Assembly (NCBI RefSeq): GCF_045037415.1 | Contig: NZ_CP173438.1 | Source of the DNA: Escherichia coli | GTDB lineage: Bacteria > Pseudomonadota > Gammaproteobacteria > Enterobacterales > Enterobacteriaceae | Direction: 5' to 3' (one strand) | Length of the DNA: 64,000 nucleotides | Part shown: in pieces, positions 1,822-60,301 of the stretch | Layout: the number at the start of each line of letters is the position of its first letter | Position numbering within the stretch: the stretch's first letter is position 1 | Translations under genes and position numbers: made by a program | The notes under the pieces: model-generated | What the model saw: the letters and a program-made list of their open reading frames with translations, nothing else | The model's database searches: none | What the model was told of the DNA's origin: nothing

Positions 1822-4254
1822 ATGACCACACTGAAACTGGACACGCTCAGCGATCGCATTAAAGCGCACAAAAATGCGCTGGTGCATATTGTGAAACCGC
1901 CGGTCTGTACCGAGCGCGCGCAGCACTATACCGAGATGTATCAACAACATCTCGATAAGCCGATCCCGGTACGTCGCGCGCTGGCACTGGCGCATCACCT
2001 GGCGAATCGCACCATCTGGATCAAACATGATGAATTGATCATTGGCAACCAGGCAAGCGAAGTTCGCGCCGCGCCGATCTTCCCGGAATATACCGTCTCC
2101 TGGATCGAAAAAGAGATTGATGATCTGGCAGATCGTCCCGGTGCTGGTTTTGCGGTGAGTGAAGAGAACAAACGCGTTCTGCATGAAGTGTGCCCGTGGT
2201 GGCGCGGTCAGACCGTACAGGATCGCTGCTACGGCATGTTTACCGATGAGCAAAAAGGTCTGCTGGCGACCGGCATCATTAAAGCGGAGGGCAATATGAC
2301 CTCCGGCGATGCGCACCTGGCGGTCAATTTCCCGCTACTGCTGGAAAAAGGTCTTGATGGTCTGCGTGAGAAAGTGGCGGAACGTCGCTCGCGCATCAAT
2401 CTGACGGTTCTGGAAGATCTGCACGGCGAGCAATTCCTGAAAGCGATTGATATCGTGCTGGTGGCAGTCAGTGAACACATTGAACGTTTCGCTGCCCTGG
2501 CGCGTGAAATGGCCGCGACCGAAACCCGCGAAAGCCGTCGCGATGAACTGCTGACGATAGCAGAAAACTGCGATCTTATCGCCCACCAGCCGCCGCAGAC
2601 TTTCTGGCAGGCGCTGCAACTGTGTTACTTCATCCAGTTGATTTTGCAGATTGAATCTAACGGTCACTCGGTATCGTTTGGTCGTATGGACCAGTATCTC
2701 TATCCATACTATCGCCGTGACGTTGAACTGAACCAGACACTGGATCGCGAACACGCCATCGAGATGCTGCATAGCTGCTGGTTGAAATTGCTGGAAGTGA
2801 ACAAAATCCGCTCCGGCTCACACTCAAAAGCCTCTGCGGGAAGTCCGCTGTATCAGAACGTCACCATTGGCGGGCAAAATCTGGTTGATGGTCAACCGAT
2901 GGACGCGGTAAATCCACTCTCTTATGCGATCCTCGAATCTTGCGGTCGCCTGCGTTCGACTCAGCCTAACCTCAGCGTGCGTTACCATGCGGGTATGAGT
3001 AACGATTTCCTCGACGCCTGTGTTCAGGTGATCCGCTGCGGCTTCGGGATGCCGGCGTTCAACAACGACGAAATCGTCATCCCGGAATTTATTAAACTCG
3101 GTATTGAACCGCAGGACGCTTACGACTACGCAGCAATTGGTTGTATCGAAACCGCCGTCGGTGGCAAATGGGGCTATCGCTGTACCGGCATGAGCTTTAT
3201 CAACTTCGCCCGCGTGATGCTGGCGGCGCTGGAAGGCGGTCGTGATGCCACCAGCGGCAAAGTGTTCCTGCCACAAGAAAAAGCGTTGTCAGCGGGTAAC
3301 TTCAACAACTTCGATGAAGTAATGGACGCATGGGATACGCAAATCCGTTACTACACGCGTAAATCAATCGAAATCGAATATGTCGTCGACACCATGCTGG
3401 AAGAGAACGTACACGATATTCTCTGCTCGGCGCTGGTCGATGACTGTATTGAGCGAGCGAAAAGTATTAAGCAAGGCGGCGCGAAATATGACTGGGTTTC
3501 TGGCCTGCAGGTCGGCATTGCTAACCTCGGCAACAGCCTGGCGGCAGTGAAGAAACTGGTATTTGAACAGGGCGCGATTGGTCAGCAACAGCTGGCTGCC
3601 GCACTGGCGGATGACTTCGACGGTCTGACTCACGAGCAGCTGCGTCAGCGGCTGATTAACGGTGCGCCTAAGTACGGCAACGACGATGATACTGTCGATA
3701 CGCTGCTGGCTCGCGCTTATCAGACCTATATCGACGAACTAAAACAGTACCATAACCCACGCTACGGTCGTGGTCCGGTTGGCGGCAACTATTACGCGGG
3801 TACGTCGTCTATCTCCGCTAACGTACCCTTTGGCGCGCAGACTATGGCAACACCGGACGGGCGTAAAGCGCATACCCCGCTGGCAGAAGGCGCTAGTCCG
3901 GCCTCCGGTACTGACCATCTCGGCCCAACGGCGGTCATTGGCTCAGTAGGTAAACTGCCTACGGCCGCGATTCTCGGCGGCGTGCTGCTCAACCAGAAAC
4001 TGAATCCAGCAACGCTGGAGAACGAATCTGACAAGCAGAAACTGATGATCCTGCTGCGCACCTTCTTTGAAGTGCATAAAGGCTGGCATATTCAGTACAA
4101 CATCGTTTCCCGCGAGACGCTGCTGGAGGCGAAAAAACATCCGGATCAGTATCGCGATCTGGTAGTGCGCGTCGCGGGCTATTCCGCCTTCTTCACCGCG
4201 CTCTCTCCAGACGCTCAGGACGATATCATCGCCCGTACTGAACATATGCTGTAA
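1822..4254 (+). CDS. ybiW: glycyl radical enzyme, PFL-like (PflF), substrate unknown
   Basis: 810 aa; C-terminal glycine-radical motif RVAGYSAFF; single active-site Cys in GCIET; immediately downstream of its activase. Confidence 0.92.
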   Translation: MTTLKLDTLSDRIKAHKNALVHIVKPPVCTERAQHYTEMYQQHLDKPIPVRRALALAHHLANRTIWIKHDELIIGNQASEVRAAPIFPEYTVSWIEKEIDDLADRPGAGFAVSEENKRVLHEVCPWWRGQTVQDRCYGMFTDEQKGLLATGIIKAEGNMTSGDAHLAVNFPLLLEKGLDGLREKVAERRSRINLTVLEDLHGEQFLKAIDIVLVAVSEHIERFAALAREMAATETRESRRDELLTIAENCDLIAHQPPQTFWQALQLCYFIQLILQIESNGHSVSFGRMDQYLYPYYRRDVELNQTLDREHAIEMLHSCWLKLLEVNKIRSGSHSKASAGSPLYQNVTIGGQNLVDGQPMDAVNPLSYAILESCGRLRSTQPNLSVRYHAGMSNDFLDACVQVIRCGFGMPAFNNDEIVIPEFIKLGIEPQDAYDYAAIGCIETAVGGKWGYRCTGMSFINFARVMLAALEGGRDATSGKVFLPQEKALSAGNFNNFDEVMDAWDTQIRYYTRKSIEIEYVVDTMLEENVHDILCSALVDDCIERAKSIKQGGAKYDWVSGLQVGIANLGNSLAAVKKLVFEQGAIGQQQLAAALADDFDGLTHEQLRQRLINGAPKYGNDDDTVDTLLARAYQTYIDELKQYHNPRYGRGPVGGNYYAGTSSISANVPFGAQTMATPDGRKAHTPLAEGASPASGTDHLGPTAVIGSVGKLPTAAILGGVLLNQKLNPATLENESDKQKLMILLRTFFEVHKGWHIQYNIVSRETLLEAKKHPDQYRDLVVRVAGYSAFFTALSPDAQDDIIARTEHML

Positions 4255-56423: not shown

Positions 56424-58685
56424 TTACATCTGACGGTTTTTATTGAAGTTAATCAAACTACCCGCCTTGATAATCTCGCGTTCTTCGGCAGTCAGACTTT
56501 CCATATAGAGCGTGATTTCCGTTACCGGTGCATCTTCATGGATCACATAACCTTTAAACGTCGTTCCAGGATTATCCAGCGCCGCTTTAATGCCAGGGAT
56601 GTAAATGTAATCCCCCACTTCAAAGGTTGGCGCTTCCGCCATCTGCAGCGGTAACATCCCCCAGTTGATGACGTTAGAACGATAGCGTTTAGTCGCGTAC
56701 TCCTCGGCAATATTCGCCAGACCGCCAATCACACGCTGACAACTCGCCGCCTGTTCACGCGCAGAACCATCGCCTGGTTTCACCGCATAGACCATGCTGC
56801 CAATTTCAGTTTGCAGCGGATCAACATGTTCCTGACCAGCAATCTGCTTAATGCGCGCAAACACCTCTGCCATCTCGCTGACATTCCCCGCCAGACGCTG
56901 ATTTTCCAGCTCAGCAGTCGCTTTACTTCTGCCAACATAACCTGGATCGCGGCGTGACAGGGTAAACTCCGCCAGACCAATCGGATTTGAACGATAAGAA
57001 GAGGTTTCACCGGAAGGAATCAGTTCGTCGGTGGTGGTCACTTCGTCGAGGATCTTCGAGCACACTTTGAGGACGATATTGTCAGTCAGCGCACCCAATT
57101 CCGGCCAGTCTTTAATGTTCGGTCCGTAAATCAGCGGTTGCTGGGTCGCCCCTTTCACAAAGCCTTGATAGACGCGATTTTTATACGGCGTTACATCGAA
57201 GGCGTACTCCGGCACGTTGTCCCAGCAATCGAGTTCGCTGGCAGAGGTTAAATAGCCACCGTTTGCCGCAGTCGCAGCGATAGAACGAGCGTCCATCAAC
57301 GCCACCGCTGACATCTGCCCATTAGCTGGCTTAGAGCCTTCGCGGTTCGGGAAGTTACGCGTGGTGTGGCGAATACTCAAACCGTTGTTGATTGGCGTAT
57401 CGCCCGCGCCAAAGCATGGGCCGCAGAACGCGGTTCTGATGATTGCGCCTGCGCCAATCAAATCTGCGACCACACCTTTTTTGGCGAGATCCATAAACAC
57501 CGGCTGTGATGACGGGTAAACCGCTAACGAGAAGGTGTCATTGCCGCAGGATTGACCGCGCAGCGCATTCGCCGCCGCGATGACGTTTTCATAGTTACCG
57601 CCAGAACAGCCCGCGATAATCCCCTGCTGCACTTTCAGGCGACCATTTTCCACTTTATCCAGCAGCGAGAGTTTGGCTTTACCGTGCGCCACGCGTTCGG
57701 ACTCAATTTCAATCTCACGCAGAATGTCGGTCAGGTTCTGGTTCAGCGTGTCGATTTCATACACGTTGCTCGGGTGGAATGGCAGCGCAATCATTGGTTT
57801 GATGGCGCTTAAATCAACGCTGATGCAGCCATCGTAGTACGCCATTGGTTGAGGGTTAAGTTGGCAGTAATCCTGGCCGCGACCGTGCAGCGCCAGCCAG
57901 TTATGGACTTCTTCATCGGTTTGCCAGACAGAACTTAAACAGGTCGTTTCAGTGGTCATCACGTCAACGCTGTTACGGAAATCGGTAGAGAGCGCTGCAA
58001 CACCGGGACCTACGAACTCCATCACTTTGTTTTTGACGTAACCGTTTTTGAACACGGCACCGATGATAGCCAGCGCCACATCCTGCGGCCCCACATACGG
58101 CGCAGGTTTTCCGGTCAGATGCACCGCAACCACGCCCGGATAGTCGATATCCCAGGTGTCATTAAGCAGTTGTTTTACCAGCTCGCCGCCGCCCTCACCG
58201 ACTGCCATTGTCCCTAATGCGCCGTAACGGGTGTGGCTGTCTGATCCGAGGATCATTTTGCCGCCGCCAGCCATCATTTCACGCATATATTGATGGATGA
58301 CCGCAATATGCGGTGGCACAAAAATACCGCCATAACGCTGGGCCGCCGATAAACCAAAAACATGGTCATCACCGTTAATGGTGCCGCCGACGGCGCAGAG
58401 TGAGTTATGGCAGTTGGTCAGCACATACGGCAGCGGGAAACGTTCCATACCGGACGCTTTAGCGGTCTGTACAATACCAACAAAGGTAATATCGTGAGAG
58501 GCTAATGAATCAAACTTAATTTTAAGTTTATCCATATTTCCGGACGTATTATGAGAAGAGAGAATAGACCAGGCAATAGTGCCTTTTTTGGCTTCTTCTT
58601 TTTTAATTTCGCCGGTGAAATGTTCTTCGGCAATTATTTCGTTATTACTGGCGAGAAACACGCCTTTTTCAGATAACTTGATCAT
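56424..58685 (-). CDS. ybhJ: aconitase-family protein (putative hydratase/dehydratase)
   Basis: 753 aa from [10 protein letters not shown]...; aconitase-family catalytic and swivel-domain similarity. Confidence 0.88.
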
Positions 58686-58786
58686 CAAATGCTCCAGATA
58701 TCTGCGCACCGGAAAGTGCGCAGAAAGATAATAAATGGATATACTCTAAATAATTCGAGTTGCAGGAAGGCGACAAGCGAGTGAAT

Positions 58787-58818
58787 CCCCAGTCACTTAC
58801 ATAAGTAAGTGACTGGGG
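58787..58818. other. perfect 14-bp palindrome between ybhI and ybhJ
   Basis: ccccagtcacttac-ataa-gtaagtgactgggg; no flanking U-tract. Confidence 0.5.
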
Positions 58819-58867
58819 TGAGCGAACGCAGACGCAGCACATGCAACTTGAAGTATGACGAGTATAT

Positions 58868-60301
58868 TTACAGCATGTTCCAGCCGATCAGCATATTCCA
58901 CCACCACACGCCGAGGGTGATATGCACCAGGAAGGTTAATATCGTCAGTACCGCACCGACCAACCACCAGGATTTAATATCGTTGTAACCCACGCCAAAG
59001 ATGACCGGACCTGCCGCGCCGCCATAGTGAGTAACCATGCCGCCATAGGAGTTAGAGAACAACAGTGCCAGCGCGGTTAACATTAACGGTGCGCCGGAGA
59101 CATTCGCCAGCATGGCAAATACCGGTAACATGGCAACGATATAGGCACTACCAGAAGCGAAGAAATAACGCACGATGATGCTGAGGAAAATAATAACGAA
59201 GAAAGCAACGTTCCCGTGACCATCAAATGCCAGGTTATTTTTAAAGACTTCAGCTAACCATTCGAAGAATTTAACTTTCGATAATAAGGAGCTTAAGCCG
59301 ATAATACCGCCGTACCAGATTAAGGTATTCCAGCCGCCTTTATTTTTAACCACGTCTTCCCAGGTAACGATACCCAGCAGCAGCATAGTTGCCATAACAA
59401 CGATTGCCACGGTGGATTCATCAACCCCCAGAGACTTACTGAAAATCCAGCCCAGCAGCGCCAGCACAAAGACACCGAGCAGCATTTTTTCGCGGATTTT
59501 CATCGGTCCCAGTTCGGCAAGGCCCGCTTTAGCGATGGTTTTGTTATCCACCTTCTTAATTTCTGGTGGATACATGGTGTAAATCACCAGCGGGGTGACC
59601 AGCAGCATAATGATGCCCGGCAATCCGGCGGCTAACGCCCATCCACCCCAGCTAATTTGCAGGTGCAGAATGTCGTTGATCATTTTCAGCGCCAGAATGT
59701 TCCCCGCCATTGCGGTAAAGAACATATAGCTGGTGGTTTTGGTGACCATGTAAATGGACATCATCAGGTAATGTCCAACACGACGCGGACTTTTTTCCGG
59801 TTCTGATCCCAAAGCCACTGCCACGCTGTTGATGATCGGTAACACGATGCCGCCCGCACGCGCGGTGTTAGACGGTGTTGCCGGAGCCAGTACCAGATCG
59901 AGAAATACCGTAACGTAACCCAGACCCAGGGTAGTGCTACCAATTTTACCAATCAGCAGATAGGCAATACGTTTACCTAAGCCTGTGGTTACAAACGCGG
60001 CGCTTAAAGTAAACGCAGAAAACACCAGCCAGGTGGTACCGGAAGAGTAACCGCTTAATACAGCGGTGGTTTTAAATTCCCCACCTGATAAGTTACCCAC
60101 CACTACCATCGATGCGGCGACGGCAATTAACAGTACGACAGGTTCCGGGAAAGGCTTGATAACCAGCCCCACAATGGCCGCCAGGTAAATACCAAAAAGC
60201 ACCCACGCCAGTTCGCTTAATCCTGCCGGAGCTGGCATAAAGCCAATAATACATGGGATTGCTAATATCAGAATTAGCTTCCATAACGATTTCTTATTCA
60301 T
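58868..60301 (-). CDS. ybhI: DASS-family (divalent anion:Na+ symporter) transporter
   Basis: 477 aa; multi-pass membrane protein of CitT/SLC13 type. Confidence 0.88.
   Translation of the reverse strand: MNKKSLWKLILILAIPCIIGFMPAPAGLSELAWVLFGIYLAAIVGLVIKPFPEPVVLLIAVAASMVVVGNLSGGEFKTTAVLSGYSSGTTWLVFSAFTLSAAFVTTGLGKRIAYLLIGKIGSTTLGLGYVTVFLDLVLAPATPSNTARAGGIVLPIINSVAVALGSEPEKSPRRVGHYLMMSIYMVTKTTSYMFFTAMAGNILALKMINDILHLQISWGGWALAAGLPGIIMLLVTPLVIYTMYPPEIKKVDNKTIAKAGLAELGPMKIREKMLLGVFVLALLGWIFSKSLGVDESTVAIVVMATMLLLGIVTWEDVVKNKGGWNTLIWYGGIIGLSSLLSKVKFFEWLAEVFKNNLAFDGHGNVAFFVIIFLSIIVRYFFASGSAYIVAMLPVFAMLANVSGAPLMLTALALLFSNSYGGMVTHYGGAAGPVIFGVGYNDIKSWWLVGAVLTILTFLVHITLGVWWWNMLIGWNML

Follow-up and report, generated by a model that had tools for sequence, protein, structure and literature searches.

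The perfect palindrome that lies between ybhI and ybhJ in a 64-kb stretch of Escherichia coli DNA (64,000 nucleotides, hereafter the window) is almost certainly the apex of one ancient copy of the ERIC element, fixed at a site 1 nt after the ybhI stop codon. The feature is already known in kind, an ERIC copy and not a new regulatory site, and its sole unusual points are a perfect core that is specific to one allele and the strong conservation of the copy. Taken together, the identification of the ERIC copy, the derived nature of its perfect allele and a mechanism based on a co-transcribed hairpin were assigned a probability of about 0.8. [quoted passage not shown] (1991), and ERICs are the basis of a routine typing PCR. 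They are MITE-like repeats of enteric bacteria that were described in 1990-91 (reviewed in PMC2229807, PMC3184786 and PMC10969869).

The palindrome and the 127-bp element around it

The sequence CCCCAGTCACTTAC-ATAA-GTAAGTGACTGGGG occupies positions 58787-58818 of the window and consists of two 14-nt arms, 100% complementary to each other, that are separated by a 4-nt spacer. Repeats with 14-nt arms are expected by chance about 0.0002 times per spacer length in 64 kb, and none of 100 shuffles of the sequence gave a palindrome match. The palindrome is real and stands far above chance expectation. A reading of the window made from its letters (the sequence-only reading) had reported a perfect 14-bp palindrome between the ybhI stop and the ybhJ start, and the letters, arms and spacer are as it described them. 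The intergenic gap measures 182 bp (58686-58867) and the two genes are co-oriented on the minus strand (Table 1). There is no T or U tract after the stem on either strand: the stem is flanked by GGGGTGAGCGAACG on the plus and by GGGGATTCACTCGC on the minus strand. When 58300-59300 was scanned for terminators and promoters, no terminator-like or promoter-like site was detected within 58686-58867. An intrinsic terminator was rejected on these two grounds, in agreement with the earlier judgment that the palindrome is not a canonical terminator. The K-12 RefSeq and PGAP annotations include no feature overlapping the element.

The palindrome is enclosed by a larger imperfect inverted repeat of 127 bp (58740-58866, TATACTC...GAGTATA) that the sequence-only reading had overlooked. 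Its outer arms, 58739-58764 and 58842-58867 in the inverted-repeat analysis, are 81% complementary. In a gapless alignment with the 127-nt E. coli ERIC/RU-1 consensus (Delihas 2007), 110 of its 127 positions are identical (86.6%), and in one with the 127-nt Salmonella enterica copy SeRU-1 116 of 127 are (91.3%). The unit also contains an exact match to the PCR primer ERIC-2, the sequence of which is quoted in PMC4046986. A blastn search of 5,426 complete E. coli genomes with the 127-bp unit as query gave 54,496 places; matches occurred in 5,425 of the genomes, and the median was 11 places per genome. The control, a 49-nt spacer next to the element, was single-copy (median of 1 place per genome). 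The primer match, the length of 127 bp, the alignments and the copy number together identify the unit as one copy of ERIC (enterobacterial repetitive intergenic consensus), also known as IRU or RU-1. When 36 distinct copies were combined into a profile, its sole match in the 64-kb window was at 58740-58866, with an E-value of 2e-37. Both termini of this copy are TA, an arrangement (TA...TA) also present in 33 of the 56 full-length copies sampled. Termini of 5'-TA-3', together with TIRs and a TA target duplication, are among the MITE characters of the family, and this copy has the TIRs as well.

A scan for the exact core pattern in one genome per species returned at least 120 stretches and, among the matches listed, the core was present in Citrobacter, Yersinia, Pectobacterium, Dickeya, Salmonella, Enterobacter, Buttiauxella, Serratia, Kosakonia and others. 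The sequence-only reading had treated the palindrome as a unique, locus-specific signal of 32 bp and had taken multiple copies in the genome as the mark of a repeat family. The search for copies that it suggested gave 54,496 places in 5,425 E. coli genomes as well as matches in many other genera. Its unique signal is therefore the core of a 127-bp multi-copy repeat. In many copies (L003, L006, L021, L023, L028, L045, L048-L050 and others) the core is attached to about 70 bp of different sequence (…GACAAATCCGCATGGAGCGGATTTGAACGCTGCTTGCAGCGGC…) that replaces one of the arms; these copies read as composite or insertion-bearing ERIC variants.

Table 1. Features of the ybhI-ybhJ intergenic region and their positions in the window
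Feature	Position	Strand	Remarks
Complete ERIC/IRU/RU-1 element	58740-58866	- (strand of the ybhI to ybhJ mRNA)	Identified by arms, alignments and profile
Core palindrome, apex of the ERIC hairpin	58787-58818		14-bp arms, 4-nt spacer; dG in text
Polymorphic triplet TCA	58793-58795	+	GAG in the family consensus
Match to PCR primer ERIC-2	58803-58824	+	Exact, 22/22; AAGTAAGTGACTGGGGTGAGCG
Reverse complement of primer ERIC-1R	58781-58802	+	19/22; the three mismatches are the TCA triplet
Left terminal inverted repeat (TIR)	58740-58764		Begins with TA; AU-rich 3' TIR on the mRNA (...CUCGAAUUAUUUAGAGUAUA)
Right TIR	58842-58866		Ends with TA; 5' TIR on the mRNA
ybhI stop codon TAA	58868-58870	-	1 nt from the end of the element
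9-bp perfect hairpin outside the ERIC	58701-58724	-	UCUGCGCAC-UUUCCG-GUGCGCAGA
ybhI	58868-60301	-	Stop TAA at 58870-58868
ybhJ	58685-58683 (annotated ATG)	-	From the gene annotation

On the mRNA that runs from ybhI to ybhJ, the element begins 1 nt past the ybhI stop codon and reads 5'-UAUACUCGUCAUAC...GAAUUAUUUAGAGUAUA-3', with the AU-rich TIR on its 3' side; 54 nt separate it from the ATG of ybhJ. The predicted fold of the mRNA strand is a single long hairpin (z = -8.7), and none of 200 shuffled sequences was as stable. The predicted dG of the core hairpin is -26.0 kcal/mol with the TCA triplet found here and -15.1 kcal/mol with the consensus GAG, and the corresponding values for the whole element on the mRNA strand are -54.1 and -43.2 kcal/mol. 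In silico, TCA thus adds about 11 kcal/mol of hairpin stability. The earlier expectation of a very stable hairpin was borne out by the value for the core. The hairpin is kept in the consensus fold of 36 distinct copies, and 14 of its 28 pairs show compensatory double changes. Pair 6-122, for example, is never broken: 25 copies have CG, eight have UA and three have AU. Compensatory changes of this kind may come from DNA-level processes in a palindromic mobile element and are no proof of RNA function.

The minus strand of the element (58866-58740) has one reading frame that is open for all 42 codons. An open frame through RU-1 was noted before (Delihas 2007). The frame in this copy is shifted by one base relative to that of ybhI and is therefore not an extension of the YbhI protein.

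A second, smaller hairpin is located in the same intercistronic region, between the ERIC and the ybhJ Shine-Dalgarno sequence GGAG (58695-58692). It is single-copy in E. coli (median of 1 place per genome), its stem is conserved and only its loop (58712-58713) differs among strains. This hairpin could act as a 5' stabilizer of a processed ybhJ transcript. E. coli ET650 (L124) has an IS1 inserted in it, at positions corresponding to 58702-58712 of the window, and about 11 bp (58702-58712, CTGCGCACCG..) flank the insertion sequence on either side. In this strain IS1 parts ybhI and the ERIC from ybhJ, and the ERIC is intact. Another of the sampled genomes (AH04, H41) likewise carries an IS1 within this 1-kb stretch.

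Conservation of the copy and origin of the perfect core

An empty site, representing the state before insertion, was sought in E. coli and none was found, because the element is fixed in Escherichia: it is present in 5,413 of 5,426 E. coli genomes and, at the same position, in E. albertii and E. whittamii. Comparisons with the window were carried out for the 600 nt at the 5' end of ybhJ, the 600 nt at the 3' end of ybhI and the ERIC. In E. albertii the two coding segments differ by 10.3% and 9.0%, respectively, and the ERIC has three differences, all of them in the triplet. The genome E69, deposited as 'E. coli', differs by 4.3% and 4.8%, again with three ERIC differences that are all in the triplet, and E. 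whittamii differs by 5.2% in both segments and at no position of the ERIC. In E. albertii, therefore, none of the 124 non-triplet positions of the element has changed, compared with 9-10% of those in the flanking coding DNA; the probability of 0/124 changes at a background divergence of about 9.7%, calculated from the divergence counts, is about 3e-6. The ERIC is far better conserved than the flanking genes and is therefore either constrained or homogenized by conversion with paralogues. Some paralogues, such as L042 and L100-L113, are nearly identical to the ybhI-ybhJ copy, and gene conversion among copies, rather than selection, could explain the high conservation. Conservation of this strength between species argues for constraint on at least some E. 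coli ERICs, and the ybhI-ybhJ locus offers natural alleles for testing ERIC function in this species.

The arms are perfect over 14 bp because the triplet TCA pairs exactly with the TGA that occupies 58810-58812 of the opposite arm. The triplet is GAG in 110 of the 121 copies sampled, TCA in seven and another sequence in four. GAG leaves a 3-nt internal loop in the core and TCA closes it to generate the perfect palindrome, while the effect of the other triplets varies. At this same locus, recognized by identical flanks, GAG was found in K-12 MG1655, in 'E. coli' E69 and in E. albertii, and TCA in E. whittamii and the window strain. GCG was found in strain S1bESBLb, which carries a 97.5%-identity allele. 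This strain had been presumed to have GAG on the haplotype of the window, and a picture with only two alleles was dropped when it turned out to have GCG. The frequency of TCA was estimated with a flank-anchored query at a threshold of at least 99% identity, which retrieved 566 of 5,456 E. coli records; the perfect form is thus a minority allele carried by about 10% of E. coli. Genomes with the TCA allele have 3-5 ERIC places detectable by blastn compared with 9-12 in K-12-like genomes, so that ERIC copy number differs markedly among E. coli lineages. The low count in the TCA genomes suggests that they belong to a particular lineage.

On comparison of these alleles, the perfect symmetry appears to be a derived state in which GAG was replaced by TCA. 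We consider it somewhat probable that the replacement occurred through a template switch at the quasipalindrome during replication. Template-switch mutation associated with quasipalindromes was reportedly described by Ripley in 1982. The process is established in E. coli through work of the Lovett laboratory (PMC7202029). An alternative source of TCA is conversion by another ERIC copy that already carries this triplet, which could yield the same product as template switching. Changes of the triplet in single steps occur as well, as the GCG allele shows. TCA is also present in unrelated copies, namely one in Dickeya undicola (L026), one in Enterobacter ludwigii (L052) and three in Escherichia sp. 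MOD1-EC7003. The perfect palindrome is a clear case, from nature, of a quasipalindrome made perfect by a change of several bases. This change is polymorphic in E. coli and recurs in independent copies, which makes it useful for the study of template-switch mutation in the wild.

Two of these other genomes have further peculiarities. In the E. ludwigii copy the perfect arms are lengthened to 23 bp (GTGTATTCACCCCAGTCACTTAC / GTAAGTGACTGGGGTGAATACAC, at about 3871-3902), another apparent arm homogenization. Escherichia sp. MOD1-EC7003 has at least 15 near-identical full-length ERICs at different loci (L100-L113), mostly with TA...TA termini. Such a set suggests that ERICs have recently multiplied in a burst within one Escherichia lineage, unlike the E. 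coli copies, which are few and fixed.

Possible roles of the element between ybhI and ybhJ

B-oriented ERICs that adjoin stop codons in Yersinia enterocolitica were reportedly studied by De Gregorio et al. (2005). In the sampled full-length copies, a small set from which orthologous duplicates were removed, the stop codon of a long ORF falls within ±2 nt of the element end at six independent loci in the orientation seen at ybhI and at none in the opposite orientation. According to the reviews, ERICs of Yersinia are co-transcribed with the flanking genes and their effect depends on orientation. When an element adjoins the 3' end of a gene in one of the two orientations, an RNase E site within its 3' TIR is reported to be unmasked in a ribosome-dependent manner, and the unmasking reduces the upstream transcript compared with that of the downstream gene (PMC2229807, PMC3184786, PMC10969869). 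The count of six versus zero, small as the sample is, agrees with the orientation bias reported for Yersinia. We infer the 'B' orientation of the ybhI-ybhJ copy from the reviews and this count.

Since the anatomy of the copy matches the Yersinia case, a comparable mechanism can be proposed tentatively as the most likely one, at somewhat less than even odds, in which an intercistronic hairpin uncouples the stability of the ybhI and ybhJ mRNAs. The ERIC would be co-transcribed on the ybhHIJ mRNA and would fold into the hairpin of about -54 kcal/mol. Ribosomes terminating at the ybhI stop codon would keep the long ERIC stem from closing, and with the stem open an RNase E site would be exposed within the 3' TIR, which is AU-rich. 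Cleavage at this site would lower the ybhI transcript relative to that of ybhJ, and the levels of the two mRNAs would become uncoupled. The TCA allele strengthens the predicted apical stem and could raise protection against 3' exonucleases. The earlier suggestion that the palindrome is an RNA stability or processing element survives to the extent that it agrees with what the reviews say of Yersinia ERICs, and it fails in treating the palindrome as a unique signal.

It is also conceivable, albeit unlikely, that the copy has been domesticated as an intercistronic regulator of ybhHIJ, with GAG, GCG and TCA as states of a recurrent quasipalindrome-correction switch that sets the ybhI:ybhJ ratio. 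If this were true, the triplet would tune the hairpin by about 11 kcal/mol, and hence the ybhI:ybhJ expression ratio, across E. coli lineages.

The Term-seq tables of Adams et al. (2021) for K-12 list no 3' end at ybhI or ybhH and a single antisense end inside ybhJ. The ybhHIJ operon is repressed by YbhD, and loss of ybhD de-represses ybhH (PMC9068703); the operon was probably silent in the conditions of the Term-seq study. Since the operon was probably silent and K-12 carries the GAG triplet, the absence of an end in these tables is uninformative with respect to the proposed mechanism.

The element could instead have no function at this site and be a tolerated selfish or relic insertion, with TCA as a neutral by-product of the quasipalindrome, a possibility that we consider serious even if it falls clearly below an even chance. 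ERICs occupy many unrelated intergenic contexts, no ERIC function has been demonstrated for E. coli in the literature surveyed, three alleles (GAG, GCG and TCA) coexist at the triplet, and some strains tolerate an IS1 at a distance of 30 nt. However, a dispensable insertion does not readily account for its fixation in 5,413 of 5,426 E. coli genomes and its occurrence at this position in E. albertii and E. whittamii as well, and the lack of any non-triplet change (0/124), where the flanks have diverged by 9-10%, would be unexpected under neutrality unless conversion homogenizes the copies.

Readings that assign a transcriptional role to the locus are considerably weaker. A hairpin of this stability, followed on the mRNA strand after the full element by the moderately U-rich UCCAUUUAUUAUCUUUC, might be thought to act as a partial terminator or pause site that generates polarity between ybhI and ybhJ. 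This is improbable in view of the GC-rich core with no U tract, the AU-rich base of the long stem and the empty scan of the intergenic region, to which the K-12 Term-seq tables, with no 3' end at ybhI, add weak evidence. The least probable proposal, of which we would expect very little, is that the palindrome serves as an operator for a dimeric regulator, such as the product of the nearby LysR-type gene ybhD, and controls ybhJ apart from ybhI. In its favour are the perfect 14-bp dyad symmetry and the proximity of ybhD. The core, however, lies beside unrelated genes, with about 10 loci per E. coli genome and further ones in many genera, and at this locus K-12 and about 90% of E. coli lack the perfect symmetry. 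In addition, the intergenic region has no promoter-like site, and the reported targets of YbhD are ybhH and ybhI, beside the divergent ybhD (PMC9068703). The earlier proposal of a YbhD binding site is not supported by these results.

Comparison with known repeats and mutational systems

REPs are GC-rich units of about 35-40 nt, and an E. coli genome contains hundreds of them. The element between ybhI and ybhJ shares with REP and BIME sequences an intergenic location and the nature of a palindromic, presumably co-transcribed repeat of a kind able to stabilize the upstream mRNA. It differs from them in its 127-bp length, AT-rich termini, about 11 detectable copies per genome and ERIC sequence. 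Membership in the REP family was rejected on length, composition and copy number, and the earlier statement that the palindrome is not REP-like holds for the 127-bp unit as well.

A search of Rfam at a permissive E-value returned no curated ERIC family, and the only matches were a weak one to isrH and one below threshold to RF02818 (V_AS5, Vibrio RNA AS5). The whole V_AS5 model (1-129) aligns at 58739-58862 on the plus strand with 44.1 bits and an E-value of 4e-8. This score is far under the gathering threshold of 96, and membership in the family was rejected. V_AS5 was probably built on a Vibrio sequence derived from ERIC.

As in the known cases of template switching at quasipalindromes, the difference between GAG and TCA is a multi-base change that perfects an inverted repeat, and the new bases are the complement of the other arm. 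The event is observed in that system, whereas here it is deduced from natural polymorphism. The B-oriented ERICs of Yersinia resemble the ybhI-ybhJ copy in that the element abuts the upstream stop codon, lies between co-oriented genes and would carry its AU-rich TIR on the 3' side when transcribed. They belong to another species and other genes.

The closest relationship is with the ERIC/IRU/RU-1 family itself. The copy has the 127-bp length, the conserved core, the ERIC-2 site and the TIRs with terminal TA that characterize the family, it is intergenic between co-oriented genes, the repeat is multi-copy in Enterobacterales, and its predicted fold is the long hairpin. The distinguishing feature is solely the triplet at 58793-58795, which is TCA in the window and GAG in the consensus.
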